50,658 bases of DNA. Source: a virus. Its lineage: Duplodnaviria > Caudoviricetes. A model generated the notes under the pieces. It saw only the letters and a program-made list of their open reading frames with translations. It searched no databases and was not told the DNA's origin. The stretch lies in IMG/VR virus record IMGVR_UViG_3300025834_000001, positions 1 to 50,658 of that record; one strand, written 5' to 3'. Positions 9,697 to 30,700 of the stretch are shown here, in pieces. The translations under genes and the position numbers were made by a program. Every line of letters starts with the position of its first letter. The stretch's first letter is position 1.

Positions 9697-9796
9697 TGAT
9701 TAATAGTTATACATTTAATTGGTTAAAAATAATACAACACTTGATTAGAAAAAAGTAGTAAAATGGGTAGTGTATCAAGGAAAGAGGTATGTAGAT

Positions 9797-10231
9797 ATGA
9801 ATTATAAACATATAGCAGTTCCACGACTAATTGTTCTTATACTACTACTGCTATTTATTTTAACGCCAGGACAACCCGAGCCCTCAAAGAGTACGCCGGC
9901 CCAGGTTATTCATAGAACATACCCCTTGACTGATGAAAGATGGACTGAGGTTACAGCTACGGGTTATTGTAAATGCATTGTTTGCTGTGAAAAAATCAGT
10001 GAAAATGCCGTTACTTATTCTGGACAGATCGCCCGAAGTTCCAGAACCATAGCTGCTAACCTCAGTTTTTATCCCATTGGCACTCGTCTTTACATAAAGG
10101 ATTTAGGTATCCGAGTAGTTGAAGACACAGGAGGGGCACTGCACAATAAGGATATTGACATCTATTTCAACACACACAATGAAGCACTGCAATTTGGCAG
10201 ACAAACTATTTTAATTAAGGAGATATTATGA
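9797..10231 (+). CDS. 3D-domain (peptidoglycan lytic transglycosylase-like) protein with an N-terminal membrane anchor
   Basis: VTATGYC, TIAAN...YPIGT, VEDTGGAL and DIDIYF form the 3D domain signature; hydrophobic N-terminus. Confidence 0.85.
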   Translation: MNYKHIAVPRLIVLILLLLFILTPGQPEPSKSTPAQVIHRTYPLTDERWTEVTATGYCKCIVCCEKISENAVTYSGQIARSSRTIAANLSFYPIGTRLYIKDLGIRVVEDTGGALHNKDIDIYFNTHNEALQFGRQTILIKEIL

Positions 10232-10650
10232 GTAAAGTAAAAGAAGCAATTGAAGCTACCAAAAATGATCTACCAACTCTTAAAATGATGGTAAAATTAG
10301 CTCACGCAATTGAGATACTCTTATCATTGACAGACGACTTCAAGGAATTCTTTCCAAACAAAATGAAACCAAACTGCAAAGACTGTGACGACTGTAAAGA
10401 ATGTGGAGAACACACCGCTGCAGAACTTGACGAGCTAATGGGAGAACTTGATAAACTTGTAAGTGCAGACATATCTAAACAAAAGAGCGTTATGTTAGCC
10501 TTCGATCCAAAAAGAAAAGTAGCTACAATTGACGCAAAAGAATCCGATTTTGATCCGAAATTCCTAACGTATTTACTGGAAAGCATAGGGCTTCCAAAGA
10601 ATACAAAAGTTGAATTTAAAGTAGCAAAGGAGAAAAGCAATGAAAACTAA
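10228..10650 (+). CDS. Hypothetical protein with a CxxCxxCxxC cluster
   Basis: AAGGAG RBS; CKDCDDCKEC. Confidence 0.7.
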   Translation: MSKVKEAIEATKNDLPTLKMMVKLAHAIEILLSLTDDFKEFFPNKMKPNCKDCDDCKECGEHTAAELDELMGELDKLVSADISKQKSVMLAFDPKRKVATIDAKESDFDPKFLTYLLESIGLPKNTKVEFKVAKEKSNEN

Positions 10651-11032
10651 AATCATGGGCAACATCGCCATCATCAGCTCAAGTCTAACCCAGACAGAAA
10701 TCAAGGGCCTTGAAAGACATAATCCAGACGCTTTATGTCTAAAGGACGAAAAGGGTAGCACTAAATATAGAATCACTTCTACATCTGGTGCAGCATCAAT
10801 CACAAGAAACGGAGTCTCCTTCAATGAAATAGATGAAACTACTGGACAGGTTTACATCACTGTAGCACTCCCAGTTGGAACTGAAAACAAAGCTGTTTAC
10901 ATTGCTGAAAACTTTGGCAAAGCATTGACAGATTTGAGAACAGTAGAAGCAGCTGCATCAGAAGCATTCGCTGAAGTAACAGCCAACATCGAAGCAGTAG
11001 CTGACGCTATTGACGTAATCGAAGCAGTTTAG
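10640..11032 (+). CDS. Hypothetical protein upstream of the Ubl gene
   Basis: AAGGAG RBS; Ala/Glu-rich helical C-terminus. Confidence 0.75.
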   Translation: MKTKIMGNIAIISSSLTQTEIKGLERHNPDALCLKDEKGSTKYRITSTSGAASITRNGVSFNEIDETTGQVYITVALPVGTENKAVYIAENFGKALTDLRTVEAAASEAFAEVTANIEAVADAIDVIEAV

Positions 11033-11066
11033 TTAACACCAATTTGAAACATAGGAGGAAATTCTA

Positions 11067-11300
11067 ATGATCAGAGTAACTATTGGAACAAACACGGACA
11101 GGACAAATGTAGTCCTTGACCCTAACACAACCCTTAAAAAAGCACTTGAAGATGCAAATGTCGATATCGGCGTGTCTTCAATAACACTTGATGGTGCAAC
11201 CTTAAAACCAGGTGACATCAACAAGACATTCGCAGAAATGGGAGTAACTGAAAACTGCTTCCTAATTGTCTGTGCAAAAGTGGAAAATGCAGTAGCATAA
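11067..11300 (+). CDS. Ubiquitin-like (beta-grasp) small protein
   Basis: 77 aa with a Ub-like pattern (IRVTI, NVVLDPNTTLKKALE, ITLDGATL, KTFAEMGV, FLIV) and an AGGAGG RBS. Lies directly upstream of the E2-like, JAB and ThiF genes. Confidence 0.7.
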   Translation: MIRVTIGTNTDRTNVVLDPNTTLKKALEDANVDIGVSSITLDGATLKPGDINKTFAEMGVTENCFLIVCAKVENAVA

Positions 11301-11316
11301 TCCAAACCTCTTTCTT

Positions 11317-11346
11317 AAAGGCAGGCTTTAGCAACCTGTCTTTTTT
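11317..11346 (+). terminator. Rho-independent terminator after the Ubl gene
   Basis: AAAGGCAGG/CCTGTCTTT stem followed by a T-tract. Confidence 0.75.
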
Positions 11347-11348
11347 AT

Positions 11349-11408
11349 GGCCCGGGTCTCGGCGACTATTCAGCCCTACTGATATCTGGTTCGATACCAG
11401 ACTGGGTC
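11349..11408 (+). ncRNA. 60-nt tRNA-like element (non-canonical)
   Basis: 7-bp acceptor-like stem GGCCCGG/CTGGGTC, a canonical T-arm TCTGG-TTCGATA-CCAGA, and two short inner hairpins (GTC/GAC, TCAG/CTGA). Too short for a standard tRNA; no CCA. Confidence 0.5.
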
Positions 11409-11441
11409 TTTTAAATTAAATAAATTGAAAGGAGCTATATA

Positions 11442-13073
11442 ATGATAAACCTAACTCAATATTCCAAAGACTACATTGACGACTTAATTTCCAAAGACGT
11501 AAAGAAAGTTGTGAGTAATAATGTATACTCCAGTTTAAGTTGGTCTCATAATGGTGTATCTTCTTTTGCATATGACTATCCTATAAAACTGGTAAACACA
11601 ACAATAGATGAACTATTTCGTGAGATTAAAGAGCCGGTTAGCTTAAGACTTGACAAACTAAACCTCACACAAGAAGACGTAGACCTTTTAAAACATAACC
11701 CAACAAACCCTGGGAGCTGGCCTTATCCATTAAGAGAAACCATACGTCGTGTAAACGAATATAGATTTAATACTCCAGCAGCAGACAGAAAATTTCCTCA
11801 TATTACAATAGCACATATTACAAAAGGATATTCTGGGATCAACTCGATTGGACAAGAATCTTCCAACAATGCAATACCTTTTAAAAGATTAGAATCAGCT
11901 ACGACACTACTGAAACAAAATGGAAAGCACAGACACGCAATGCTTGAAGTTGGCCCATCACAATACCTGTACATCACTAATCAATGGGGCTCAACATTAA
12001 TGTTTGCCATGTATTCTTGTATGCTCTTACTATTCAAACATATGTTATCAGAGGAAACAGCCGCAAAAGCAGAAGAACTAGCTCTTGATATATTCACAGA
12101 CAGGATAAGTACAGAAGCACTGGTTCATAAACTCGCTTCTATAATCGTAGACCCTAAAATACAACAAGAGCAGTTTAGAAAAAGCATCCAAGGTATCGAA
12201 TACAAATTACGAGTTAAAGAAAAACAACAATATGAAAAAGAATTAACTGACGTTACAGTTTCTCTACGAGACTTAGAAATAGAAATAACAGACTTGTGGA
12301 CAAAACATTCTTTCCTTAATCGACAAATAGATTATCGTAATGCATCTCCAGACGCTGAAGATGAAAGCAACGCACTATCTGAATTTATTATGAGAACTCA
12401 AGAAATAGTAGGCCAAGCATATAACCCAGAAACTCAAGTGCTTCAACTCGCTATTGTAAACGAATTGGAATATTATGAACGAGACGCATTCATAAGCTCT
12501 ATCAGAAATAAAGATTCAAGATGGTGGGAAACAAACGACTTTAGTATGTCTTCACTTTTAACTTTAATTATTTGTTTCTTAACTGAAAAGTATTCTTTAA
12601 TAACTAAAAGCATGATAACCCTAAACTTTGCGAGAAAAGAAGTAAATAGAGATTCCTCAACAGCAGCTCTAGCTGAATTAAGAGAATACATGGGAATGTC
12701 ACATCCGCATATTATGGGTATTAGTTGCTTTGGTTCAAACAGAAGTCAGATTATAGCAGGAATGGGGAAAGGAAACTACATAGGGTCTGTTGCCCAAACT
12801 ATAGCTGCCTGTAAAAACATGAATATGACTGACAGAATGGCTATAGGAAAACTGCTAGAGTACACAAACATTGCAATCGTTCAAGGTAAGCCATTTATCA
12901 AGAATAACAGAACTGGAGAAATATTAGATTATGCACACTTCTATGAGGAAAATAGAGATAACATTCAGCTTATGTTTAACTCAGAAGCAACTGCAAAAAG
13001 AACAATGACTCAATCAAAAGAAGATGTAGAAACTATCGCTGATATATTTGATAAGGAGGAAGATAATGAGTGA
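11442..13073 (+). CDS. Large protein with a coiled coil and a putative C-terminal E2/UBC-like domain
   Basis: SHPHIMGISCFG resembles the HPx(I/V)...C catalytic motif of prokaryotic E2 families. It lies between the Ubl and JAB/E1 genes. Confidence 0.5.
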   Translation: MINLTQYSKDYIDDLISKDVKKVVSNNVYSSLSWSHNGVSSFAYDYPIKLVNTTIDELFREIKEPVSLRLDKLNLTQEDVDLLKHNPTNPGSWPYPLRETIRRVNEYRFNTPAADRKFPHITIAHITKGYSGINSIGQESSNNAIPFKRLESATTLLKQNGKHRHAMLEVGPSQYLYITNQWGSTLMFAMYSCMLLLFKHMLSEETAAKAEELALDIFTDRISTEALVHKLASIIVDPKIQQEQFRKSIQGIEYKLRVKEKQQYEKELTDVTVSLRDLEIEITDLWTKHSFLNRQIDYRNASPDAEDESNALSEFIMRTQEIVGQAYNPETQVLQLAIVNELEYYERDAFISSIRNKDSRWWETNDFSMSSLLTLIICFLTEKYSLITKSMITLNFARKEVNRDSSTAALAELREYMGMSHPHIMGISCFGSNRSQIIAGMGKGNYIGSVAQTIAACKNMNMTDRMAIGKLLEYTNIAIVQGKPFIKNNRTGEILDYAHFYEENRDNIQLMFNSEATAKRTMTQSKEDVETIADIFDKEEDNE

Positions 13074-13770
13074 CAGAGTAATTGACTTAGTCAAAGCCAA
13101 CTGGGATGTATTACTAGAAAAACATGGCAAGTCACTATACGCTATGAGAATTGAAGACATTTATTCTTTAGTAGCACCAAAACCAATGATACTATACACA
13201 CCACTAGCTGAAATGAAAATACACGCTTTGGTTAAAGAAAGCACAATTGAAATAAGCTGGCATGGTTTAGTTGAAAAAATCAACGATATGACCTACCTTA
13301 TCACAGATATCCTAATGTACCCACAAACTTGTACAGCAGCAACAGTAACCACTGACGATGAAAAATACACCAATTGGTTACATAGCCAACCAGATGAAAT
13401 CTTTAACAAGATAAGATACCAAGGACACAGTCATGTTAGAATGGGAGTTATGCCATCCGGAGTTGATCTGAATTACTACAGAGATATGATTAAGAATCTG
13501 AAAAAAGATGACTTTTATCTCTTTGAAATCAGAAACAAAACAAACGAAATGAACATAAGACTGTACCAAAATAATGATATACCAGAATGGTTTGTCAATC
13601 GAGAACTACAGACAACAATAGCAATTAATGGAACTCCTAGTGATGTATATGCTCAAAGAATCATGAGTGAATTCATACAAAAAAAGGAGTATCCAAAACC
13701 CCCCTTGGAAGACAAACTAAACAAAGCACCTAAAACTATTAAAGGTAAGAAAGGGGACATCAAACTATGA
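13066..13770 (+). CDS. JAB/MPN+ (JAMM) metallopeptidase
   Basis: N-terminal Glu (IEISW) plus GHSHVRMGVMPSGVD, matching HxH-x7-S-x2-D. The AGGAGG RBS favours ATG 13066. Confidence 0.88.
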   Translation: MSDRVIDLVKANWDVLLEKHGKSLYAMRIEDIYSLVAPKPMILYTPLAEMKIHALVKESTIEISWHGLVEKINDMTYLITDILMYPQTCTAATVTTDDEKYTNWLHSQPDEIFNKIRYQGHSHVRMGVMPSGVDLNYYRDMIKNLKKDDFYLFEIRNKTNEMNIRLYQNNDIPEWFVNRELQTTIAINGTPSDVYAQRIMSEFIQKKEYPKPPLEDKLNKAPKTIKGKKGDIKL

Positions 13771-14432
13771 ACTTAAACAAACATAGGGAATTCTTTGATC
13801 CCGTGCAAACAGAATTGGCTATTCATATCATAGGTGTAGGAGCAGTAGGTTCAACCATAGCCGAGCAATTGGTAAGACTCGGACTGGCTTCCTTACACAT
13901 CTATGATATGGATATTGTAACAGAGCACAACCTAACCAACCAAATGTATTACCATCACCAAAAAGGAGTGCTGAAAACAACAGCTTTACGAGAAACATTA
14001 GAACGAATAAACCCAGAGGTATATGTTGTAAAACACGAAAAAGGGTACATCAAACAACCCTTAGGAGGAATTGTTTTCTTATGTGTAGACAGCATCGACC
14101 TTAGACGTAAGATAGTGGAAAACAACCAATATAACCCTAACATTTCCGCAATGTTTGATTGTAGAATGGAATTAACTGGAGCTCAACATTACGCTGCAGA
14201 CTGGAAAGACCCATACTCCATCCAAGTTTTTTTAGACTCTATGCAATTTTCCAGTGCAGAAGCCAAAGCTCAAACACCGGTCAGTGCATGTGGAACATCC
14301 TTAAGTATTAACCCAACAGTTAGAACTTTGAGTAGCTATTGCATAAGCAACTATATTAACTTCATAAACACAGGAAAACTGAAGAAGTTTATAATATTCG
14401 ATGCTTTCAGCTACGACACTTACGCAATTTAA
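13767..14432 (+). CDS. ThiF/E1-like adenylating enzyme
   Basis: IIGVGAVGS nucleotide-binding loop, DMDIVTEHNLTNQ, LCVDSIDLR and a candidate catalytic Cys in SACGTS. Confidence 0.92.
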   Translation: MNLNKHREFFDPVQTELAIHIIGVGAVGSTIAEQLVRLGLASLHIYDMDIVTEHNLTNQMYYHHQKGVLKTTALRETLERINPEVYVVKHEKGYIKQPLGGIVFLCVDSIDLRRKIVENNQYNPNISAMFDCRMELTGAQHYAADWKDPYSIQVFLDSMQFSSAEAKAQTPVSACGTSLSINPTVRTLSSYCISNYINFINTGKLKKFIIFDAFSYDTYAI

Positions 14433-14443
14433 AATGTACTAAA

Positions 14444-14839
14444 TGATACAACGCAATTTAAGTTTCAATCCTAAGCAATGGATTCAACTTAGCTTTATGT
14501 GTTCCACTAAAGTATCAAATGCTTCGGAGGGGAAACACCCGCAGATGACGCCCCAGTAGGAGGCCGCATCCTGTGGGTCACCTGGAGATGGATATGTTAT
14601 AGCGTAATTCCGGTTAAGATTCAATAGTTTTTACAAATTATTAACCCAAAAGGGCTACGAACTATAACATTTCAACACAATTCCCCTAAGAGCATCAGAC
14701 ATTCAACAGTCTGCAGAGCCAACAGCTCTCAATTTCATCAGAACTACCAGCAAAAGTTAACTTACTTCTGGCACCCTGAGCTAAGTTGATCACCGTGCAG
14801 CACTGCATACTCCCGTATACCACAGTTTAGGTTGTATCA
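14444..14839 (+). ncRNA. Retron-like ncRNA unit 1 (msr/msd-like, upstream of the RT)
   Basis: Terminal inverted repeat TGATACAAC (14444-52)/GTTGTATCA (14831-39) with G14453 and G14830 just inside. Conserved hairpin CTTTA-T-GTG-TTC-CAC-TAAAG at 14493-14512. Many internal stems. Confidence 0.75.
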
Positions 14840-14863
14840 AACCAAAAGAAAGGAAGTACACAA

Positions 14864-16021
14864 ATGTTTTATTTAACTTACAAAAGAACCATAACACAAC
14901 GACCTACACCAGCACCATCAATAGAGTATTTAATAAAAAACTTCCATAACGTAAATCAAACCCCAGTTTACCCACTAGATCCTATCCCATCATTTGCAAC
15001 AGCAACAAAAATAATAGACCATATAAGCAATACAATGATAGATACTTACGCACCTTATATTGCTCAGCAAAAACTGATTGCACTATGGAACGAAAGTAAG
15101 TACCTACTGGATGAAGATATGTCCAAACATTATTACTCTTTCTTAATCCCAAAGAAAACAGGTGGTCAAAGAAAAATCATGGCCCCCAACGACGAGCTGA
15201 AACATTACTTAAGACGCTTTGTAGATATTATACAAGACGATTTTCACATCTTATTTCATGACGCAGCTTATGCTTATACTAAAGGTCGGTCAACAACTGA
15301 CGCAGTTAAAAAACACCAAAACAATGAAAGCCAATGGTTCTTAAAGATAGACCTTAAAGATTTCTTTCCGAGCTGTTCATACAATAAAGTTAACACAGCA
15401 CTACAAAGTATATTCCCATTATGTTGCCTTTATGATAAAGTAGAAACCAAGGAAGCTCTTGAAGGAATGTTAAGATTATGCTTTGTAAATGATGAACTTC
15501 CACAAGGTACCCCAGCAAGTCCGTTACTAACGAACCTGTTAATGTTACCTCTGGACTACACCATCAAAAATAGATTCAAAGACTTCAACAAAAGCTACTT
15601 TGTATATACCAGATACGCAGATGATATCTTAATATCTTGTAAATACAATTTCAATTGGAGAGACGTTGTAAAAGAATTAGATCATGTTCTAAAGACAATG
15701 GGCTTAACCATTAACACAGAAAAAACAAGATACGGTAACCGAAACGGAAGAAACTGGAATCTCGGATTAATGCTTAACAAAGACAACCAAATTACAGTTG
15801 GGCATAAACGAAAGAAAGAAATCCGAGCAATGATTCACAACTTCCTAGAAGATTACCACAAAGGTGAACCGTGGTCGAAGCAGGATACACAAATATTCCT
15901 TGGACAACTCAGCTACGCTACACAAGTGGAACCAGATTATTTCAACCATGTTATTAAATTAGCAGGCCATGGACGAAAATATGACCTCAGAACAGCTTCA
16001 TTGCAAATTCTGAAAAGCTAA
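14864..16021 (+). CDS. Retron-type reverse transcriptase (stand-alone, 385 aa)
   Basis: IPKKTGGQRKIMAP, HDAAYAY..GRS..DAVKKH (region X-like), KIDLKDFFPS, LPQGTPASP, YTRYADD and INTEKT. No maturase or endonuclease extension. Confidence 0.9.
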   Translation: MFYLTYKRTITQRPTPAPSIEYLIKNFHNVNQTPVYPLDPIPSFATATKIIDHISNTMIDTYAPYIAQQKLIALWNESKYLLDEDMSKHYYSFLIPKKTGGQRKIMAPNDELKHYLRRFVDIIQDDFHILFHDAAYAYTKGRSTTDAVKKHQNNESQWFLKIDLKDFFPSCSYNKVNTALQSIFPLCCLYDKVETKEALEGMLRLCFVNDELPQGTPASPLLTNLLMLPLDYTIKNRFKDFNKSYFVYTRYADDILISCKYNFNWRDVVKELDHVLKTMGLTINTEKTRYGNRNGRNWNLGLMLNKDNQITVGHKRKKEIRAMIHNFLEDYHKGEPWSKQDTQIFLGQLSYATQVEPDYFNHVIKLAGHGRKYDLRTASLQILKS

Positions 16022-16026
16022 TTAAA

Positions 16027-16383
16027 ATCTTACAATAGCAATTACTAATTAAAAGGTTAGCCCCCTAATTAGACTTTAAGTGCTACACTAAAGAAAGAAA
16101 AATACTAATAGTACAAAATTCCAGGATCTTCAGACCGTCTCGGTTAAACTTCGCCGTACTGCTCCGGGCCTCCAGTGGAAAAGCAAGCTACGGATCCAAC
16201 CCGGCGTAGCACATTTTGTAAAGTTCATTTCGCAAAAGCACTACACTCACTTTACAAAACGTGCACTGCCGGAGTGGATTCCTCAGCTTGACTTTTCCCA
16301 CCTGGGGCCCAGGAGCATACCGGCGAAAGTTAACCCAGACCGCCTGAAGATCCTCGAATTTTAATTTTTAAGTATTGTAAGAT
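16027..16383 (+). ncRNA. Retron-like ncRNA unit 2 with a ~110-bp imperfect stem
   Basis: Inverted repeat ATCTTACAATA (16027-37)/TATTGTAAGAT (16373-83) with G16038 and G16372 inside. Hairpin CTTTA-A-GTG-CTA-CAC-TAAAG at 16074-93. Long stem 16115-16224 pairs with 16249-16362. Confidence 0.8.
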
Positions 16384-16389
16384 ACAAAA

Positions 16390-16510
16390 CTACATATTAG
16401 AGATATAGGCGTAAGTCTAGTTTCAAGTGCTACACTGAAATAATATAAAGTCAAGGTATCACGTCTTTCCCATACGAGGGGAAACCCGTTTTAATTTAAG
16501 TAATATGTAG
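16390..16510 (+). ncRNA. Retron-like ncRNA unit 3 (short)
   Basis: Inverted repeat CTACATATTA (16390-99)/TAATATGTAG (16501-10) with G16400 and G16500 inside. Hairpin TTTCA-A-GTG-CTA-CAC-TGAAA at 16421-40. Shares the 3' motif TTTTAATTT(TT)AAG with unit 2. Confidence 0.72.
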
Positions 16511-16525
16511 ACAAGGAGTCGAATT

Positions 16526-17008
16526 ATGAGTAATATAGAAGATAGATGGATTGAACTTCAACTCTACCAACTTCTAGCAGATTTACAGGACTTCTCCAGA
16601 AATCAACTAAGTGTCCTCGATGCTGTCGAAGTATTAGCGGTATGGGGGAAATTCAGTTCAACAAAAGCAGAAAAACTTGTCTTAGATGTTATGAGTTGGC
16701 CCCACTTTAGACCTGCAAGAGAAGAACTAGCAATCCTAGCACATAAAGCCGGAGTCGATATGCCAGAAATTACAAGAGTAACACAACTGGAAAGACACAC
16801 CATCTACAGAGCAATTCAAAATGAAGCAAAAAACCCAAAGATGTGGGTGCCTAGACTTACCTTAGAAAACACCAAATTAGCCAAACAAATCATTGATAGC
16901 CACATCAATCTAAGAAAGGTAGGAATTTATGGATCACGAACAGTTAAAGAGACTGAAGAACATGCACAAAATGCTTGGACAAGAGGCATTTACTCTGAAC
17001 CATTATGA
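16526..17008 (+). CDS. Hypothetical protein with a probable helix-turn-helix
   Basis: MPEITRVTQLERHTIYRAI resembles an HTH; AAGGAG RBS. Confidence 0.65.
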   Translation: MSNIEDRWIELQLYQLLADLQDFSRNQLSVLDAVEVLAVWGKFSSTKAEKLVLDVMSWPHFRPAREELAILAHKAGVDMPEITRVTQLERHTIYRAIQNEAKNPKMWVPRLTLENTKLAKQIIDSHINLRKVGIYGSRTVKETEEHAQNAWTRGIYSEPL

Positions 17009-17324
17009 TTTCGCAGAAAAAACGGCAGAACCAGACGAAGAAATATGGAAAGAGTTTTTAGCTATCCCAGAAATTATGGAATGGCGTAATGCAGAATTTC
17101 AGATCATATCAGACACAGAACTAAGAAAAACAATTCATGGAATTAACACTTCCAAATCAGTAGGGCAGTCACAGCTTATTGGAGCACTTTCCAAAATTAA
17201 TGAGGTCAGTGTACAAAAAACTGGGCCTGCCTTTGTTTACTGTTATACCCCGTTAAACTCTGAAGAAGCTCAAGCTCCGGATATCAAAATCTTAACCAAA
17301 AACCCATTTGGAGACCCCGAATGA
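16929..17324 (+). CDS. Hypothetical protein
   Basis: RBS present; ATGA overlap with the helicase gene. Confidence 0.7.
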   Translation: MDHEQLKRLKNMHKMLGQEAFTLNHYDFAEKTAEPDEEIWKEFLAIPEIMEWRNAEFQIISDTELRKTIHGINTSKSVGQSQLIGALSKINEVSVQKTGPAFVYCYTPLNSEEAQAPDIKILTKNPFGDPE

Positions 17325-18673
17325 GCCCCGAATTACGACCATACCAACAAGAAGATGTAGCATTCCTAGAAAAATTAGACAGTGCAGGTTGTTTCAACGA
17401 ACAGCGAACAGGAAAAACACCCACTGCCTTAATTTTAGCTTCGCCATATAAGAAAATACTCATTATATGCCCTGGATCGGCAATGCCACAATGGAAAGAC
17501 GAATTTGAGAAATGGTTAGGTCGGCCATGCATTACCTTAATTGGTACACCTCAAAAACGTAACGATTTATTCGCACAATGGACAGATGGACTGATTGTAT
17601 CCTATGACATCTTTAAAAGTACACTGAAAGGTGCAGGACTCGTAAAAGACATAGTAAAACATCCCCCAGATTTTATGATCGTCGATGAAGCACATAGAAT
17701 CAAAAACCCCAAATCAGCAGCAGCTAAATCCGTATTTGCTTGTAAAAAGTTTACTAAAAAATTGGCATTAACGGCTACACCTGCTCACGGCAAGTCTCAA
17801 GAAATATATTCTATCTTACATTGGCTATACCCAACACGATTTACAGGATATTGGGCATTTGTAGATGAATTCTTTGCACAAGAGAAGAAATGGGGAGCAA
17901 ATGGAACTCAATTTATAGATATTGGGGGCTATTTACCAGGAAAAGAACTGGAATTACAACAGTACCTCGCTACTATCTCTACTCAGCGTAAACGAAAGGA
18001 AGTAATGCCATGGTTACCTTTGAAAGATTATACACAAATCCGATTAGAACCGACAAAGCACCAAACCAAGTACCTCGCCGAACTCCAACAGTTTTACGAA
18101 ACAGAACACGTAATTACGCAAGGAACACTCGACAGGCTAATCCGATACCGACAGATATGCTTAGCACCAGCACTTCTAGACCTCAAAGGAGAATCCCCGA
18201 AGTCAGAGTGGATTAAACAGTATCTTAAGGATTACCCAGAGGAATCTGTTATCATATTCTCTAAATTTACAAGCTATTTGAAGTTACTACAGCAGGAATT
18301 ACTAGAATTTGAACCAGCTTTAATGATAGGAGCAACTCCAATCCCATTTAGAAAAATATTAGTAAATGAATTCCAGAAAAAGAGAACTAGAATCCTATTG
18401 CTTAATCTAGATGTAGGCAAGGAGGCCCTTACCTTGGACACAGCGACGACAACAATCTTTTGTGATAAGTACCCTCCAATTGGAGATATTGCTCAAGCAG
18501 AGGACAGATTCGTGTCAACCACAGAGGACAAGAAAGACAAACCACACAAAATTATTGAGTTAATGATCAAAGACACTTACGATGAAGAACTCTATAAACT
18601 TTTAGAGAGCAGAGCAAGTGAAACAGACGTACTCAATAACTATAAATTATACTTAGAAAGGAGAAAATTATGA
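17321..18673 (+). CDS. SNF2-family (SF2) helicase
   Basis: LRPYQ, EQRTGKT, IVDEAH, LTATP, IIFSKF and QAEDR motifs. Confidence 0.92.
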   Translation: MSPELRPYQQEDVAFLEKLDSAGCFNEQRTGKTPTALILASPYKKILIICPGSAMPQWKDEFEKWLGRPCITLIGTPQKRNDLFAQWTDGLIVSYDIFKSTLKGAGLVKDIVKHPPDFMIVDEAHRIKNPKSAAAKSVFACKKFTKKLALTATPAHGKSQEIYSILHWLYPTRFTGYWAFVDEFFAQEKKWGANGTQFIDIGGYLPGKELELQQYLATISTQRKRKEVMPWLPLKDYTQIRLEPTKHQTKYLAELQQFYETEHVITQGTLDRLIRYRQICLAPALLDLKGESPKSEWIKQYLKDYPEESVIIFSKFTSYLKLLQQELLEFEPALMIGATPIPFRKILVNEFQKKRTRILLLNLDVGKEALTLDTATTTIFCDKYPPIGDIAQAEDRFVSTTEDKKDKPHKIIELMIKDTYDEELYKLLESRASETDVLNNYKLYLERRKL

Positions 18674-20617: not shown

Positions 20618-23398
20618 ATGAGCTTTTTAACAGAATTCTTCGACATAAACGAGGAATCTGGCGAAGTTGCCGTATGTTGCCCCTTCCCACACATTACTAC
20701 AGGAGGGATGACATACTTAGAACACAATCCTTCTGCACATGTAAACACTACAACAATGTTATATCATTGTAAAGTATGTGGTACAGGTTATTCAGAGGCT
20801 CAGTTCATACAACAGCTTCTAGGTTGTGGTGTCGCAGATGCTAAAAAAATACAGCACTGCTTCACTACTACAGAGGATTTACACGATTGGAACGATTCAA
20901 CAATACTAACAACAGCCTCAAAAGAACGAGGTCTAGCCCTTGGTATTTCAGAAGAAGTTCTGAGAGAACTCAATGTTAGCACCCCAGCTGGAACCGGTGA
21001 CCTAATTGCATTCCCAGTATTCATGTTTGACCATCTTTTAGATATACGCAAATATGACCCTGGTAACAAACCTAAAGTCAAATCTAGAGCTAAATGTGTC
21101 AGTGGATTAATTATCCCATTTGATACTTGGAGAACATCACCAACAACCCGTACAACAATAGTTTGTGCAGGAGAGAAAGATATGGCTATCGCACGATCAT
21201 ATGGTTTCAATGCAATCACCATTACAGGTGGGGAGGCTACATTACCTAAAGCACCAAAATACTTTAAGGACAGAAAAATAGTTATTGCTTATGACAATGA
21301 CGGAGCAGGTATCTCGGGAGCAAAAAGACTAGCTGCCACTTTAAAACCTTATGCCGAAAGTGTAAAGGTACTGACCAATTTCCATGAAGTATGTACAGAG
21401 CAAGGCGAAGACATAACAGACTACTTTATGAAGTATAACAAGACTAGAAACGACTTAATCAAATGTATATCAAATACAGACGAGTACATACCTACATTGG
21501 AAGACCTAAAGAAAGACTACCCAATCGTAGACCTTCTAACAGCAAGTCACCCAGATAACATAGGTAAAATACTAAGGAGTAATGTACAAATCGTAGCTGT
21601 ATCCGAAGCAACTTACGCCACACCCTCAGTGATCACAGCAGATAAATTTAGAACCGGTGGAGAAAACGACGGTATGAAAGTAGGAGAAACTCGAGACTGG
21701 GAGTTAAATGAACAAACCTGTCAAGACATCCTACACCTTATGGACAACAACTTCACAGAAGAAACCATAGCAAAAAATCTACGTGGTATGCTAAAGATTA
21801 TGCTGAAAGAAAAGTATGTGCATATTAAAGCACTAGAAAAGAAAACAATATTCAAGGCTTATCTAACAGATATGTTTGAAACATCCGATACAGATACACA
21901 GCCTATGGAGTACACAGCTTACTCAATTGGTAACAAATTAGAGTCTGGTAAAAAGTACATGGCGACTTACAAATTGGTTCCTCACCCATATAAAGGACAA
22001 CAACTAACGATGATTGTTCTGGATGTAGTGCAGGCTAACGATTCCGTTTCAAACTTTCAACTGACTCCAACTGTTAAAGCAAATCTCCGAGCCTTTCAAA
22101 AGGTCAAAGGAAGTGTAGCTGAAAAAATGGAGCACATTACAGAAAGAGCAAAAGGATTAATAGGATACGATGGTAATAACCAACTGATCCAGACAATCGA
22201 CTTAGCATTTCACACAGTGTTACAATTCAGATTCGGAAATTTTAAAAGTGTACGAGGTTACCTTGACACCATTATTGTAGGAGAAAGCAGAACTGGTAAA
22301 TCCAGCACTGCCGATATACTCAGAACAACATACGCTCTAGGAACATTTACATCATTGGCAGGAAATAGTGCAACAATAGCAGGACTGGTCGGAGGCTCAA
22401 ACAAAACAGCCACTGGCTACCAGACTAGAGCAGGTACTATCCCCCAGAATCATAAGGGATTAATCATCTTTGAAGAATTTGGAAAGTCCAACGCAAATGT
22501 AACTGCAGAGCTGACTGATATTCGATCTTCCAATGAAGTACGGATAACCAGAGTTTCTGGGACTATCACATTACCTGCAATGGTAAGAATGATAGCATTA
22601 ACAAATACTAAAGCATCTGGTGGAGCCATTAGACCTATTGCAAGTTACCCAAACGGAATAAGTATTTTACAGGAATTAGTCGGAACAGCAGAAGATATAG
22701 CACGATATGACATCGCACTTGTATCAGCTGACCGAGGCAACAGCCAAATCGACCCATTATGGGAACCTCTAGAACCTTTTACAATAGAAGAATATAGAGC
22801 TAGAATTCGATGGGTATGGAGCCGAACTCCAGATCAAATAATTATCTCGCCAGAACTGAGCAAATATATAATGGAATGTGCTAACACATTAAATAAAGAA
22901 TATGCTTGTCATATTAAAATATTTGGTACAGAAGCATGGAAAAAACTAACTAGACTTGCACTAGCAGTAGCAGGGTATCTAGTTTCCACCGATCATGAGT
23001 ATGAAAACCTTATCCTACAAAAAGAGCACATAGACTATGCAAGAGATTATCTCGTCAGTATCTATGATAACTCTACTTTCAAGCTCAAGGAATATGCAGA
23101 GCATGAAAGAAAGTATTCCACGATAGACAAAGAGGGCGTAGACAACCTTCAAGATATCTATCAGAAATCTCCAAGTATGATACTTCAGTTAGAACAGAGC
23201 TCGGCTGTAACTAAAAATATGTTAGCTGCTGCTACTGGACTGGATACTGGAGAATTAAATGCTGTGTTAATGCGATTAACAAAAGGACTGTTCATTCAGA
23301 TTCAGAACCATGACATTGTTCCAACTGAAAGATTCAGACTTGGTTTAGGAAAACTCAATCGTTCAACCAGCATGGCAAGGCTAGGTGAACCCTCATGA
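20618..23398 (+). CDS. Primase-helicase fusion (Zn finger, TOPRIM, MCM-like AAA+ helicase)
   Basis: CCPFPH...YHCKVC; CAGEKD and AYDNDGAG (TOPRIM); VGESRTGKS, AGLVGG, IIFEEFGK and IARYD (MCM-like AAA+). Confidence 0.85.
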   Translation: MSFLTEFFDINEESGEVAVCCPFPHITTGGMTYLEHNPSAHVNTTTMLYHCKVCGTGYSEAQFIQQLLGCGVADAKKIQHCFTTTEDLHDWNDSTILTTASKERGLALGISEEVLRELNVSTPAGTGDLIAFPVFMFDHLLDIRKYDPGNKPKVKSRAKCVSGLIIPFDTWRTSPTTRTTIVCAGEKDMAIARSYGFNAITITGGEATLPKAPKYFKDRKIVIAYDNDGAGISGAKRLAATLKPYAESVKVLTNFHEVCTEQGEDITDYFMKYNKTRNDLIKCISNTDEYIPTLEDLKKDYPIVDLLTASHPDNIGKILRSNVQIVAVSEATYATPSVITADKFRTGGENDGMKVGETRDWELNEQTCQDILHLMDNNFTEETIAKNLRGMLKIMLKEKYVHIKALEKKTIFKAYLTDMFETSDTDTQPMEYTAYSIGNKLESGKKYMATYKLVPHPYKGQQLTMIVLDVVQANDSVSNFQLTPTVKANLRAFQKVKGSVAEKMEHITERAKGLIGYDGNNQLIQTIDLAFHTVLQFRFGNFKSVRGYLDTIIVGESRTGKSSTADILRTTYALGTFTSLAGNSATIAGLVGGSNKTATGYQTRAGTIPQNHKGLIIFEEFGKSNANVTAELTDIRSSNEVRITRVSGTITLPAMVRMIALTNTKASGGAIRPIASYPNGISILQELVGTAEDIARYDIALVSADRGNSQIDPLWEPLEPFTIEEYRARIRWVWSRTPDQIIISPELSKYIMECANTLNKEYACHIKIFGTEAWKKLTRLALAVAGYLVSTDHEYENLILQKEHIDYARDYLVSIYDNSTFKLKEYAEHERKYSTIDKEGVDNLQDIYQKSPSMILQLEQSSAVTKNMLAAATGLDTGELNAVLMRLTKGLFIQIQNHDIVPTERFRLGLGKLNRSTSMARLGEPS

Positions 23399-24810
23399 GA
23401 CAATGGATATCAACAACAATAACGACCAACAGACAAGCCAATGAAATGCTAGACCTGTTGAAATTACTCGCTCCCAAGGTTGGAGCCTTTGACTCTGAAA
23501 CTAACGGACTGCATATTATAAACAGTACACCATTCCTGTTCCAGTTTGGATATTTACATCCAACAAAACACGTTGGTTACTCATATGCAGTTGACCTAGA
23601 GAAACAACCACTGTTGGGCCGGCAAGTGATAACTTGCTGGCACGACTATGTCTCTAAAAACTTTATAAAGTATTTAGCTCATAACACTAAGTTTGACTTA
23701 CATATGCTTTGCAATATTGGCTTACCATATCTTACGGAAAACTTATCCGATTCAATGTTCTACATTAGATATGCTCATGACGCAGTTCAGCCTGCAAATG
23801 GGGGCCCACCACTTGCACTAAAAGATTATGCTTCACAATACATCGCACATAATGCGAAGTATCAAGATAAACTTTTACAGAGTGAACGGGCATCCATCAC
23901 AAAGGAATTAAATCTGAAACTGAAGATTAGGCTAAAAGGATTAGTTCCTCCAACGGACTGGAACGCCAAAGCCTATACATTAGGTGTACTCACTGACATG
24001 TTTAAAGACCCAGTCTCTGACTGGACTTGGCTACCTGAAGATGCCCAAAAGGTATATCAAGAGTGGCTTAACATAGACGTGCCAGAAGTTATTCGACCAA
24101 GCGTAGTAGCTTTGGTGGAATCAGACTTCATACCATATACTATTCTGAATAGAGAAACTCTAATCAAGTATGCTCATTTAGATATAGTATACGCACTAGA
24201 AATCTATGACCATCTGGAGCCTATAGTTTTGGCTCGTGGTAACGAGACAGCCATTGAAATAGAGGAATCATTAATAATTCCACTATGGGAAATGGAACGA
24301 ACTGGATTTAACTGTGATATAGATTACTTAATCGAATCACAGGGTAAAGTCAAGGAGTACATTCTGGAAAGGCGACAAGCACTTTACGACCTTTGCCAGA
24401 GGAAAATCAACATAGGGCAACACGCCTTGGTTAAAGAAATACTTGAAACTGATTTCAATGTCAAATGCACATCAACAAACAAAGATATCCTGGATGTGGT
24501 AGTCTCAGATATAATCCGTGCAGGAGACAATCCCGAAGCAGTTGAATTTATTAGCACTATCCAAGAACTGAGAACCCTTGAAAAATGGTACTCTGCCTAC
24601 ATCATGCGGTTTATTAGACAAACCAAAGGTGGAGCAACTAGGCTGTACACAACCATCAACCAAGTTGGTGCTGTTACAGGCAGAGTAACATCTGATTTCC
24701 AACAGTTTCCAAAACAAGGTATAACCAAAGTTGACGGAACTGAATTATTCAATCCACGACGCATGGTAATCTGTACTGGTGGAGCTTACAACTCCATCAT
24801 CTATCTCGAT
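23395..24810 (+). CDS. polA: Family A DNA polymerase, exon 1 (3'-5' exonuclease and N-terminal polymerase region)
   Basis: FDSETNG, AHNTKFDLHM, YAHLD and TGRVTS. Ends at ...IIYLD, the catalytic Asp of motif A. Confidence 0.92.
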
Positions 24811-24947
24811 TAATACAATGGTCGAGAATAAACCCCGAGAATTGCTGGAACATCCCACCGGGACAATCAGCAGCCGAGCCTGGTAACAGGAAGGTTCAAC
24901 GACTAGTCGAAAGACGTACACTCAAGTGAGTGGAAGCACGGGGAAGT

Positions 24948-24976: not shown

Positions 24977-24998
24977 CTAATTGAAAGAAGGTGATAAC

Positions 24999-25403
24999 AT
25001 GGCAAAAGGATTTAAACAAATAAAATATTCCAAAGCTGATGAACAATTTCTTATAGATAATTATGCAACATTAGGTAACAAAAAATGTGCAGAATTACTA
25101 AACAGAAGCATAACAGCACTAAACCATAAAGTAAAAAAGATGAACCTAACTATCGACTGGAGTTATACTTACACTTCAGTACAAGGATACTTAGTAGACT
25201 GCACAGACCGAAATAATAAACAGGCTAAACATCGTCAAATTATGGAACAAAAAATTGGAAGACCTTTAACCGCACAAGATATAGTTCATCACATAGATGA
25301 AAACAAGTTGAACAACAATCCAGAAAATCTGGAACTGCTAACACGGGCATCACATATAAACCTACATCGCCCTAAATTAATGGCTGCCAAACTTATGATA
25401 TAG
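24999..25403 (+). CDS. Intron-encoded HNH homing endonuclease
   Basis: HRQIME...VHHIDENKLNNNPENL...H. The AAGGTGA RBS favours ATG 24999. The ORF lies in the P8 loop and its stop overlaps the S element. Confidence 0.9.
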   Translation: MAKGFKQIKYSKADEQFLIDNYATLGNKKCAELLNRSITALNHKVKKMNLTIDWSYTYTSVQGYLVDCTDRNNKQAKHRQIMEQKIGRPLTAQDIVHHIDENKLNNNPENLELLTRASHINLHRPKLMAAKLMI

Positions 25404-25474
25404 TCTACTCTGCATAGTAATATGCAGCAGTCACATTGACGAATTAGAATTAACGACTCTAGTTGAATATAAGG

Positions 25475-26287
25475 TATTCGCAGATAGAATTAAGATTCCA
25501 AGCATTCTACACTATATTAGTAGGCCACCCAGATTTAAACCTGTGTCGTGCCTACATGCCATACAAATGTATCAACGGGTTAGGCGAAACTTTTGACTAT
25601 AACAATCCAGATCACATTCAAAAATGGAATCAAGATTGGTACTACGAAGAAGACGTTACTAAACACTGGGAACCTACTGATGTACATGGTGCCACAACTA
25701 TGAGTGCAACTGGACTTACTCCAGCTGATCCAGAGTTTAAAACATTACGGTCAACCATAGGTAAGCGTCTGAATTTTGCGAAAAATTATGGGGCCCAAAA
25801 GGGACGCATCCGACAGATGTTCCCAGAATGTACTGAAGAAGAAGTTGTCAGAATCAACGACGCTTATTATAATACATTCCCGGGTGTTAAAGAATACCAT
25901 AACTATTGCTACGGCAGAGCCAATATGTACAGTTACACCGAAAACTTATTCGGTGTGCGATACTACGGAGTCAATGGTCATAAACTTATTAACTCACTTG
26001 TTCAAGGAAGTGCAGCGTTCTATCTGAAAAAGAAGATACGAGAAGTATATGACTACTTCAAGTCCAATGAACTTCAGTCCACATTCCAGATGAATATACA
26101 TGATGAACTATCATGGGAAGTATTCGATGGAGAAGAACCACACTTCTTTGAAATCAAAAGAATTATGGAAGACTGGGAAGACGCCCTTGTCCCTATAGTT
26201 GCTGAAATGGACATCACCAACAAGACTTGGGCAGACAAAAAGGGGGTGGTATCAATTGCAAATATCTACGATTATCTTAGCGATTGA
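25475..26287 (+). CDS. polA: Family A DNA polymerase, exon 2 (spliced product about 742 aa)
   Basis: YSQIELR (motif A), KRLNFAKNYG (motif B), NSLVQGSAA and NIHDEL (motif C). Confidence 0.92.
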   Translation, partial: YSQIELRFQAFYTILVGHPDLNLCRAYMPYKCINGLGETFDYNNPDHIQKWNQDWYYEEDVTKHWEPTDVHGATTMSATGLTPADPEFKTLRSTIGKRLNFAKNYGAQKGRIRQMFPECTEEEVVRINDAYYNTFPGVKEYHNYCYGRANMYSYTENLFGVRYYGVNGHKLINSLVQGSAAFYLKKKIREVYDYFKSNELQSTFQMNIHDELSWEVFDGEEPHFFEIKRIMEDWEDALVPIVAEMDITNKTWADKKGVVSIANIYDYLSD

Positions 26288-27784: not shown

Positions 27785-30700
27785 CTACCTATAGTAATAA
27801 AACATATCTTTCAGTCTAAACTGTAACATCTTCGGTGTTAGCTTGGTCATTCTCATAGATTGTTTACTGTTACCTTTCTTACTGTAATGTTTCTTAAAGA
27901 AAGATTCATAACGACCAGCCTTCTGGTTAGGGTAATACTTCTTAAAGTATGATCGTCTTCCACTCTTGCTGTATGCTTTACCTGCCCCCGAATAAGAACT
28001 GTACTTCTTGCCACTTGATTTCTTCTTTGGACTTCTTGGTTGCCATCTCATGTTTGCTCCAAATACACTTGGTGCGATCTGGGATAGAGCTTGAGATATA
28101 GGGTGCCCTTCTAATCTTTCAGAATACCTTGGTATCTGCTCTCCAATACGTTGAGCTAGTGGCCCTATCGCTGGTAGATATGCTGCAGCCATTTGAAGAT
28201 TGGTTTGAGCTTCTTGATCTTGCATCGCTAACAACATCGCTGTAATAGGATACTTCAACCCAGCATTTACCCTGTTCCACATCGATCCATCTATCGTACC
28301 CTCGTCTGTTCTGAGAGGGGGCTGTGTTAACAGGTTATACACATCCATATACGACGGATTCAACTTCAATGTCATGTTGGTATCTTCAAACTCTATATTA
28401 CCTTGAAGGAGACTATACTGTAGTGACCTATTATTTTCTAGTTCTTCCTGTGGAATAGAATCAAAATTCCAGATAGGCCTCATAGTATCTCCCATCATAC
28501 TGAACAACCTAGGATTGTTACTCATGACATCTATCCAAAACTCCAAGTTCCTCATTGTGAATGTATAGAACGGGATTACTAACTCAGCGATATATTCTGA
28601 AGGGTTCTTCAACCCATATTCAAAATGCGTTTTAGCTACCATTGTATACGCTTCTGATTGTGACCTACCACCTTTTTCAAGTGCCCATAAATACTCAGCA
28701 TACCGGGCAATTGATTCTACCTTTTGAGTAGGCTGTAACATAAACTCTACACCTATGTTTGCTGTCTGCCAAAGCTCATGTTCTACAGTCCTGTCTTTAG
28801 AAGCAATCATTTGCTTGTAGTAGTCTATACTTAATTCATCACCTTTTTCTCGGGCTTCTTTAAGTTTATCTCCCCAACCTTTATAAGTCTGGTTGAAGGA
28901 TTCCTGGTATGCCTTATTCATCTCAGCTGCTTGTCCTGCGGCTGGGCCATCTTGATGAAAAATATGAATTCTGCTAAATTCTTCTCTAGTCATTTTAGAT
29001 GGTTGTGGATTAGCACTAGAGAAATACCAATCAATACTTTGTAATTGGATTCTATTATACTTGCTATGGCTAATTATGTCTTTTAGTGCAGTATTATATC
29101 GACCTTCATCTCGTAAGGCTCTACCATAGAATGCCATCATTTCTAAAGGGCTCTCTGTGACAATTGCATTCTTTACGAAAGCATCTACAGCATTACGGAA
29201 TACAGCACCTCCTGTCATTAGATACCCCATCTTAGATAGATAGGTAAACTTCTGTACAGTTCTTAACCACATATTATCAAAATGGAAATCATTGATTGTT
29301 TGGAACGCTTTACTGTATGTCTGGTAATGCATGAACACTGGATTAAGTTTACGAGCTGCTGCTAAATCAGCCTCATTCCTAATCATAAGTTCTACTACAC
29401 GAGCTCCTGTCTTTGACTTAGGGTCTTTTATAAGTGCTACAAGTCTTTGTTCTGGAGCTGCCTTCAATGCTTTTACAATTTCTATATCATCCATTTTTGA
29501 TAACAGCCCTGTATTAATACTATGCATTTCATCGAAGAATAATTGCATGTATCCTACAACAGCATCTACAGTCATAGCATGATACTTAGCACTGTTTATT
29601 AAGCCTTGTGCCATGGAACCGGGGTACCCTTGCTGGAATATACGACGGTATTTGGCTGAGCCAATAGAGGAAGTGAATGTATCTGAGGCATCCATCCGAG
29701 TGTGATGTAACAGTTCGTCAGACTCTGGTAGAGCTTGACGTAATCTATCGGAGAATGTGTTATAGTAATCCTCATATAAACTAGGGTTGGCGATCTCTCC
29801 CATGGAGAAATCAATTTTATCCCCAACCAAAATCTCTTGCTGTGCATGGACATCCATGTATAGTTTAGATAACTCAAGATTACCCGTCAGTTTTGATTCC
29901 TTAAGGGCTTGGGCCATGTTCAGTCGTGGTAGAGTGGTTGGCACAACACTGGAATCTGGTCTAACACGGGAAAGCACTAATCGAATTTCATCCCCTATGA
30001 AAACCTTTTTAGGGTTATTAAATTTACTATTATACAATTTTATAAGATGGGAGTTAAGAAAGTCTTCCAATACTTTTGGATCCCCCAGCTTTCTAACTGA
30101 TTTACTAGCTTCAAATAAACAACTGTCAATTTTTTCTTTGGTTGCTCTTAACGCTTTAGAGGCATCTGTAACTTCTATATCTGCTTCCTCATGTAGCCTA
30201 TTACGAATTTCTATTAAGCCTTCTTTTATTTCATCCCAGTTTTTGTACTGTTTGCCTGTCACTAAATTGGCTATCTCGTTATATACCTCTGGTGTTTTAG
30301 CTATGACATCTGGGATAGTGTGTTGATTCACAATATCCTCTGTGACTGTAACCATATTACTTTCAAACTCGATACCAGTTCTAGCTGTAAATTCTGGAGT
30401 GAGTTTCTTTTGGAAAGCAACAAACATATCTACAACATCCATGTCTTGCTCAAACCCTAGTATGCATATCTTCATCATACGCTTACTTCTTAACAATGCC
30501 CATGCCAATGTGTCTTCATCAAAGGATAATACTATCTTCATCTGCTGTCTTGCCATTGCATGTTGTACTGCTTTATGATAGCTCATGTATTTTTGGAATC
30601 CTTCGGCATCTACGGAACCATCCCCTTTAATAAATGCTCTAACATCTTTAGCAATCTTGCGTCCTAACATATAGGATGGTTTCAGTAAGGCAGCTCTTTT

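Follow-up and report, generated by a model that had tools for sequence, protein, structure and literature searches.

The phage genome studied here probably carries a mobile cassette in which a retron, consisting of a non-coding RNA (ncRNA) and a reverse transcriptase (RT), is coupled to a complete ubiquitin-like (Ubl) conjugation set; we put the probability of this reading at roughly 0.6. What the observations show directly is the gene content, the folds, the conserved residues, the structure of the ncRNA and a strict synteny. The window, by which we mean the whole stretch of DNA that was analysed (50,658 nucleotides), is a complete phage record: its completeness is estimated at 100, and it has direct terminal repeats. 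It encodes a terminase, a major head protein, a tail fibre, an endolysin, a primase and a DNA polymerase. The cassette runs in the order O130, Ubl, ORF543, JAB, E1, structured ncRNA and retron-type RT, with the following features:

10640..11032, + strand: O130, conserved 130-aa protein of unknown fold, first cassette gene; beta-rich N-terminal half and C-terminal helix
11067..11300, + strand: Ubl precursor, ubiquitin-like beta-grasp protein, 77 aa; conserved core up to ...K-V-E-N-A, then a 2-residue tail
11317..11347, + strand: hairpin and U-run 3' of the Ubl gene, candidate intrinsic terminator or attenuator
11442..13073, + strand: ORF543, candidate E2-like carrier, 543 aa; N-terminal alpha/beta part (~1-235), coiled-coil helix (252-301), C-terminal UBC/RWD-like domain (~305-510)
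12354..12971, + strand: stretch of ORF543 coding for the UBC/RWD-like domain, limits taken from model secondary structure and aligned ranges; Cys429 codon at 12726-12728
13048..13770, + strand: JAMM/JAB metalloprotease, 240 aa, candidate Ubl tail-trimming/deconjugating enzyme; its 5' end overlaps the 3' end of ORF543 by 26 nt
13767..14432, + strand: minimal E1-like adenylating enzyme, ThiF fold, 221 aa; Pfam ThiF, Cys175 invariant
14436..14860, + strand: retron-like ncRNA; inverted repeats 14444-14452 with 14831-14839, msr-like hairpins 14458-14492 and 14493-14513, variable msd-like body
14864..16021, + strand: retron-type RT, 385 aa; intact YADD box, Pfam RVT_1 1.4e-26

The six genes occur in identical order and on the same strand in the window and in 17 other loci, i.e., in every source with both flanks, a locus set that is partly redundant (L008 and L025, for example, are one contig in two collections, and the gaps of L007 and L024 are identical). 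A further 12 loci, truncated at contig ends, hold contiguous gene subsets in unchanged order. This linkage to the RT covers one ORF543 subfamily plus the window. When window ORFs of at least 90 aa were compared with the 17 loci at 1e-5, only cassette genes matched, and the flanks differ from those of the window; because only cassette genes are common to the window and these loci, the cassette appears to travel as one unit. O130 homologues stand directly 5' of the Ubl gene wherever a locus retains its upstream flank, and O130 has no match in Pfam, PHROG, PADLOC or NCBIfam. Chance or mis-called ORFs were rejected, as the genes are conserved across loci. The four ORFs from Ubl to E1 lie on the + strand exactly where the initial annotation had placed them, but it described them as a self-contained operon, whereas they form part of a larger conserved unit, six genes and an ncRNA in all, to which the retron-type RT, its structured RNA and the 130-aa protein also belong. 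A functional account must therefore take in the RT. GenBank phages, searched at the nucleotide and protein level with the operon, ORF543 and one family member, gave zero matches, and scanning viral contigs with single cassette proteins yielded nothing useful. For the cassette, four DNA contigs are on record and no RNA data set or raw-read run.

Ubl, JAB protease and E1

The structure model of the 77-aa protein and a fold search bear out its earlier description as beta-grasp-like. Its fold matches comprise ubiquitin, SUMO and bacterial Ubls, with conjugating Ubls on top, and a likeness to the Ubl of a bacterial E1-E2-Ubl complex was also found. Ubiquitin-like modifiers have a flexible C-terminus with a small end residue, classically Gly-Gly, and are often made as a tailed precursor. 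In 33 Ubl sequences, 0-7 tail residues stand behind a conserved C-terminal end, [D/E]-[G/N/S]-[A/G]; four sequences stop right at the conserved ...NA, and the remainder carry tails of 1-7 residues. In most cassette relatives this conserved end reads Gly-Ala; in the window it reads Asn-Ala. The C-terminus thus appears precursor-like, with a small end residue and a tail, as a variant of the classical end. The term 'DUF2604' was not mentioned in the literature searched.

The hairpin at 11317-11347 has a 9-bp stem, a 9-nt loop and a U-run (-10.1 kcal/mol, z -2.9). The initial annotation had placed a terminator after the Ubl gene, and the evidence on this claim is divided: the hairpin with its U-run folds better than shuffled sequences (one of 200 shuffles was equally stable), but a consensus terminator scan reported no + strand site after the Ubl gene. 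That scan takes loops of 3-8 nt only and missed the hairpin because its 9-nt loop falls outside this range. A Ubl-gene terminator at this position is plausible. It would be specific to the window, since the spacing between Ubl and ORF543 in relatives is only ~25-30 nt.

The JAB protein carries the zinc site HSH-x7-S-xx-D with an upstream Glu, and the residues E68, H127, H129, S137 and D140 are invariant in all 15 family members, which upholds its earlier assignment as a JAMM peptidase. The window protein matches a PADLOC JAB model at E 2.8e-4, and 4/15 family members match PADLOC JAB models (best E 1.6e-4). None of the 15 matches Pfam, and the family profile found nothing among PDB sequences. 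The downstream enzyme scores 63.3 bits against Pfam ThiF (cut-off 28.1, E 2.5e-17) and 2.4e-15 against PADLOC models of Cap2-type E1-E2 proteins, and its PDB profile matches are UBA5, UBA1, UBA6, MoeB, ThiF, Cap2, BubCD, MccB and TcdA. GxGxxG, D108, R113 and C175 are invariant in 12/12 sequences. The ThiF score above the cut-off bears out the proposed ThiF/E1 protein, and the invariant Cys175 is a candidate for its catalytic Cys; HMMER alignments to solved E1s end near residue 120, short of this candidate residue.

ORF543 as a candidate E2-like protein

The gene for ORF543 lies between the Ubl and the JAB/E1 genes in all loci, and the protein belongs to a large family of 232 cluster representatives. 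Its HPH...C motif, pointed out in the initial annotation, proves to be the hallmark of this family, with H-x5-C-x-G present in 143 of 150 representatives; H423 and Asp464 are invariant, and conservation reaches at least 90% for P422, C429 and G431. E2 enzymes carry HPN...Cys after the fourth strand of their fold. The ORF543 motif is a variant of it: HPH, with five residues between it and the Cys, after the fourth strand. The structure model is confident, and the order of elements in the domain (alpha, four strands, His-Pro-His loop, Cys, helices) matches that of RWD/UBC domains. Among the language-model neighbours of ORF543 in Atlas, leads to Prok-E2_D, with scores of 0.84-0.85, and to RWD were obtained.

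Sequence searches tell less. Neither ORF543 nor its relatives match an E2 family (UQ_con, Prok-E2 family), Pfam gave only scattered single matches over 60 family members, and sequence profiles of the whole family and of its C-terminal domain drew coiled-coil noise and no E2 from PDB. An hhalign comparison of the C-terminal domain with one Prok-E2_D protein was not significant (probability 0.5%); Prok-E2_D itself was found in 1/401 genomes searched. Foldseek with the ORF543 model against PDB returned nothing at E<=1e-3, and the BFVD search retrieved one uncharacterised phage protein and nothing else. A convincing fold match for the N-terminal region was absent. The E2 call, which had been named the weakest link at the outset, is still that: the UBC/RWD-like fold and the conserved His and Cys speak for it, and sequence-level support is lacking.

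It is worth weighing whether ORF543 is a catalytic E2 at all. It may instead be an RWD-like adaptor, a metal binder or a substrate, with the E1 working without an E2 in a SAMP/Urm1-type or MccB-type manner. RWD domains are not known to be catalytic, and residues ~295-466 of ORF543 superpose best on RWD domains rather than on E2 enzymes (in two aligner modes). The missing sequence link to E2, the fact that the His, Cys and Asp could equally bind metal, and the additional E1 profile matches to MccB and TcdA point the same way. However, the conserved His-x5-Cys occupies the position of the E2 HPN...Cys after the fourth strand, the language-model neighbours carry Prok-E2_D, and the gene keeps its place between the Ubl and the JAB/E1 genes throughout. 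We therefore consider a role other than that of an E2 unlikely, and retain the E2-like carrier within the retron-coupled cassette.

Retron-type RT and its ncRNA

The RT is probably of retron type. Its top 25 PADLOC matches are all retron RT types, with RT_II-A as the best (4.4e-57), and Y/F-ADD is found in all 23 RT ORFs that reach the box; in the 24th (L009), the contig ends before it. RNase H follows 3' of the RT in 7/12 loci examined, and an RNase H-like ORF could be read between E1 and the ncRNA in the sequences of L029 and L030.

The gap between E1 and RT contains a conserved structured RNA. Related loci share in this gap a 5' block that is conserved and inverted repeats at the termini; the repeats carry CTAATAAA/TTTATTAG in 10 of the 18 gaps examined, while those of the remaining gaps differ, some of them lying at the matching alignment position. 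The two hairpins show covariation, with 91.3% of cells paired versus 77.4% in shuffles (0/500), and compensatory changes occur in 10/15 pairs. The window ncRNA folds with a z of -5.48. A search of Rfam with positions 10000-17500 gave one sub-threshold RNA-OUT match (E 0.37).

These observations bear on the original proposal that the four genes form a self-contained conjugation and deconjugation operon that would tag host proteins or subvert host Ubl defences, in which case the RT would be functionally unrelated. All four components are indeed present and co-oriented, the Ubl resembles that of a bacterial E1-E2-Ubl complex, and boundaries between transcription units might lie at the hairpin/U-run after the Ubl gene and at the 431-nt gap 5' of the RT. 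Yet in the window and in 17/17 sufficiently flanked loci the four genes come together with the RT, the ncRNA and O130, although the genes around the cassette are not those of the window, and the gap before the RT is a conserved structured RNA instead of a spacer, so that an independent four-gene system seems decidedly improbable. A ThiS/MoaD/CysO-type sulfur-carrier relay, in which E1, Ubl and JAB would not tag proteins but add sulfur to a small molecule or to nucleic acid, perhaps the RT product, is highly improbable, as the cassette and the scanned flanks showed no rhodanese, no cysteine desulfurase and no synthase partner, the top structural matches of the Ubl are conjugating Ubls, and such a relay leaves no place for a UBC/RWD-like protein with a conserved Cys. 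As the initial annotation had remarked, thiamine, molybdopterin and sulfur-transfer genes are missing among the window ORFs scanned, which include some but not all of the small ones.

Proposed mechanism and known systems

For the cassette as a coupled retron and Ubl system, we infer the biochemical steps and the link between RT and Ubl as follows. The JAMM protease would cut off the short variable tail of the Ubl, leaving a small C-terminal residue (Ala here; Ala or Gly in relatives). The minimal E1 would then adenylate the Ubl C-terminus and probably load the Ubl on Cys175, after which it may be transferred to Cys429 in the UBC/RWD-like domain of ORF543, with the N-terminal and coiled-coil parts of this protein perhaps selecting the target. 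The E3-like role that the initial annotation gave the N-terminal region is speculative, and so are the tagging of host proteins and the subversion of host Ubl defences. The JAMM protease may also remove the Ubl mark. Known retrons rely on an RT-msDNA complex that controls an effector; by analogy, the RT with its RNA/cDNA, perhaps together with O130, could act as a sensor, regulator, scaffold or target in the Ubl pathway. The most likely biological role, although a guess, is mobile-element conflict, i.e., exclusion of competing phages or counter-defence. A bolder version is possible and is put forward tentatively: the cassette would represent a new type of retron whose RT-cDNA complex gates the Ubl cascade or is modified by it, phages would carry and exchange it to fight competing phages or the defences of the host, and ORF543 would found an unrecognised E2-like family widespread in phages. 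If true, nucleic-acid sensing would be linked directly to protein tagging.

Bacterial Ubl conjugation and retrons are both recent phage-host conflict systems that were hitherto studied separately. A strictly conserved joint cassette suggests that reverse-transcribed DNA and protein tagging can share one pathway, and its location on phages, not in host defence islands, is unusual. The large phage family of ORF543-like proteins is a candidate divergent E2 family, which would extend the known reach of UBC-fold enzymes in viruses. With six genes and one RNA, the system is compact and tractable. Searches of the literature for a link between retrons or RTs and ThiF, JAB or ubiquitin-like genes turned up nothing beyond reviews and papers on other subjects, and ThiF, JAB and ubiquitin do not appear in the main text of a retron classification (PMC7736814).

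The cassette shares with retrons, of which the St85 and type II-A RTs are the nearest, an RT that best matches retron types, conserved accessory genes alongside and, on the strand of the RT and just 5' of it, an ncRNA that has two 5' hairpins and inverted repeats at its termini. It differs from them in that the RT scores below the curated cut-off of NCBIfam retron_St85_RT (213 vs 235 bits), the accessory module is a Ubl conjugation set and the whole is carried in phage genomes. Bil (bacterial ISG15-like, BilABCD) and related bacterial E1-E2-Ubl-JAB operons are anti-phage systems. The cassette genes, in contrast, are carried by phages, the E2-like protein has several domains, is 450-540 aa long and represents an undescribed family that sequence searches do not connect with E2, the E1 is minimal (221 aa), and in every case the set comes with an ncRNA, a retron-type RT and the 130-aa protein. 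In CBASS, Cap2 is an E1-E2 fusion that conjugates a C-terminus with a small end residue, and Cap3 is a JAB. The cassette resembles type II CBASS in the match of its E1 to Cap2-type models and of its JAB to Cap3-type JAB models. Neither a CD-NTase nor a CBASS effector turned up in the cassette and the scanned flanks. Unlike in type II CBASS, the E1 and the E2-like protein of the cassette are separate polypeptides, and a dedicated beta-grasp Ubl is present.

Conservation of the gene cassette

The four ORFs that the initial annotation described as a phage-encoded ubiquitin-like (Ubl) conjugation operon were confirmed by an ORF check at the coordinates given there, all on the + strand. They are rightly called phage-encoded, since this 50,658-bp window is classed as a complete phage, has direct terminal repeats and carries genes for terminase, major head protein, tail fibre, endolysin, primase and DNA polymerase.

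11067–14432, +, Ubl (ORF77), E2-like candidate (ORF543), JAB (ORF240) and E1 (ORF221)
14436–14860, +, ncRNA
14444–14452 and 14831–14839, terminal repeat pair of the ncRNA
14864–16021, +, retron-type reverse transcriptase (RT)

A subfamily alignment of ORF543 relatives was used to fetch 31 loci from viral, metagenome and genome collections, some of which are the same contig present in two collections. Profiles derived from the window and three loci served to annotate these. The window and 17 loci, the full set of sources whose flanks are long enough on either side, have six genes in one order and on one strand: O130 (a protein of 130 aa), Ubl, the ORF543 homologue, JAB, E1 and, approximately 290–940 nt further on, the RT. 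Twelve loci are cut by contig ends and hold contiguous subsets in the same order. One locus (L003) retains only the first three genes, with opposite-strand genes in place of JAB, E1 and RT, and looks like a broken copy; its ORF543 homologue (L003:7713-8966) is shortened to 417 aa and ends just past a conserved helix. Two further loci (L001 and L022) gave no match to the cassette profiles. When window ORFs of 90 aa or longer are compared with these loci, matches at 1e-5 are confined to the cassette genes; the cassette is therefore common to them, while the surrounding phage genomes differ. Loci from the genome collection lie on MAG contigs titled Christensenella, Clostridia, Lachnospiraceae, Eubacteriales or Bacillota. 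The originally proposed component list (Ubl, E2-like, JAB, E1) stands, but we read the whole cassette, and not these four genes alone, as the functional unit.

Components of the proposed conjugation arm

The model of ORF77, built from a 33-sequence alignment, reaches a pLDDT of 83.8 and has the order beta-beta-alpha-beta-beta-beta followed by a floppy tail. Foldseek returned 53 PDB matches at E ≤ 1e-3 and, among the matches listed, these are ubiquitin, SUMO, NEDD8 or Ubl domains. Weak Pfam matches to DUF2604 (12 of 33 members), which we take to be a member of the ubiquitin clan, and to TUG-UBL1 (3 of 33) agree with this. At its C-terminal end the conserved core reads Lys-Ala/Val-[Asp/Glu]-[Gly/Asn/Ser]-[Ala/Gly]; this is exactly where four of the 33 sequences stop, and the rest bear one to seven unconserved extra residues, as expected of a modifier synthesised in precursor form and then trimmed to bare a small C-terminal residue.

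ORF543 has no match in Pfam, PHROGs, PADLOC or NCBIfam. An exhaustive HMMER search assembled a family of 232 cluster representatives, mostly 450–500 aa long, in which His423 never varies and the conservation of Pro422, Cys429, Gly431 and Asp464 is 90% or higher. The HPHI...C motif noted earlier is so highly conserved (H-x5-C-x-G in 143 of 150 representatives) that it constitutes the family signature. With a pLDDT of 89.7, the AF2 model is a confident one: an alpha/beta region at the N-terminus is followed by a helix of 50 residues and by a C-terminal domain, the latter running helix, two strands, two inserted helices, two strands, His-Pro-His loop, Cys429 and helices. E2 enzymes carry HPN and then the catalytic Cys after the fourth strand. 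Foldseek against the PDB found no match at E ≤ 1e-3. For residues 300–500, the first three named Atlas clusters all include Prok-E2_D (11–39% of members), and one row of the structural Atlas search carries Pfam RWD (TM 0.47); RWD and E2 have the UBC-like fold in common. We treat these matches as leads only, and a rival reading is that ORF543 is a non-catalytic adaptor or substrate in an E2-independent chemistry.

ORF221 is unambiguously assigned by sequence to the ThiF family (Pfam, 63.3 bits against a cut-off of 28.1), and also matches Cap2-type E1 models in PADLOC. No variation occurs across 12 cassette E1s in the glycine motif, Asp108, Arg113 or Cys175, although the HMMER alignments end near residue 120, short of Cys175. 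The E1 family profile matches UBA5, UBA1, UBA6, MoeB, ThiF, MccB, Cap2 and BubCD in the PDB. Pfam gave no match for ORF240 or 14 relatives, a PDB profile search with the family found nothing, and PADLOC JAB models matched 4 of 15 members (window ORF240 at 2.8e-4). We nonetheless accept ORF240 as a predicted JAB because of its JAMM motif: Glu68, His127, His129, Ser137 and Asp140 are invariant in all 15 members, with the spacing HxH-x7-S-xx-D.

The reverse transcriptase and its ncRNA

The top 25 PADLOC matches of the window RT are all retron RT types (best II-A, 4.4e-57), and it scores 213 bits against NCBIfam retron_St85_RT, just below the cut-off of 235. An intact Y/F-ADD is present in all 23 RT ORFs that extend as far as the catalytic box, L009 being truncated ahead of it. 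On these matches, the cassette RT is retron-like.

At its start the E1–RT gap has a conserved block, whose first words recur as their reverse complement at the end of the gap. In 10 of 18 gaps examined, the longest repeat contains CTAATAAA...TTTATTAG, approximately 285 nt apart; the remaining gaps have different repeats, those of L021 and L029 at the same aligned position. Downstream of the 5' repeat lie two hairpins, in which 91.3% of cells pair in an 18-sequence alignment versus 77.4% in shuffles (reached by 0 of 500). Compensatory changes occur at 10 of 15 pairs, pairing falls to 26–51% when the partner is slid, and the window region folds with a z of -5.48. Conserved block, terminal inverted repeats and covarying hairpins rule out a mere spacer. 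The layout of the gap is that of a retron, in which an msr-like portion is conserved and the body varies; msDNA would be its predicted product. In L013:8779-9713, the 935-nt gap holds two full tandem ncRNA copies and the start of a third, each with its own 5' block and with differing bodies.

Downstream of the RT, 7 of 12 loci scanned (L002, L004, L010, L012, L023, L026, L027) encode RNase H (PF00075, E about 1e-43) followed by a DUF6273 protein. In L029/L030, an RNase H-like ORF was read from sequence between E1 and the ncRNA. The window phage has no RNase H.

Proposed reading and genomic surroundings

We propose that the cassette is a retron with a Ubl-conjugation machine as accessory arm, of which we infer every biochemical step. 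JAB would trim the Ubl tail, E1 would adenylate Ubl and then carry it as a thioester, and Ubl would move to Cys429 of ORF543 and be conjugated onto some target. In this scheme, the pathway would also involve O130 and the complex of RT with its RNA/cDNA. The synteny across loci contradicts the rival view that the Ubl operon is independent and the RT next to it unrelated. A further rival is that E1, Ubl and JAB form a sulfur-carrier relay. At listing and abstract level, the literature searched offered nothing specific that combines a retron or RT with ThiF, JAB or ubiquitin-like terms, and these words (ThiF, JAB, ubiquitin) do not occur in the main text of a retron classification (PMC7736814) or of an RT review (PMC8632793).

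Just upstream of O130, 5 of 12 loci encode a DUF2828 + DUF7788 (vWA-like) protein (L002:5328-6845, L004:4630-6465, L010:3042-4790, L023:3188-4783, L027:3033-4556), which has no counterpart beside the window cassette. Other features of the window are:

9770–10231, +, 3D-domain protein two genes upstream of the cassette (Pfam 4.3e-10; PHROG peptidase-like families), not a cassette member in other loci by ORF comparison
23395–24813 and 25463–26287, +, DNA polymerase over two ORFs, both PHROG 17
24981–25403, HNH endonuclease ORF between them
27785–36082, -, giant 2765-aa ORF between the replication and structural modules, without PHROG match

The interruption of the polymerase may reflect a split gene or the insertion of an intron- or intein-like element. 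The listed public runs matching window positions 11000–16100 are only four DNA contig sets labelled glacier metagenome. Cassette relatives come largely from MAG contigs with gut-type Clostridia titles.
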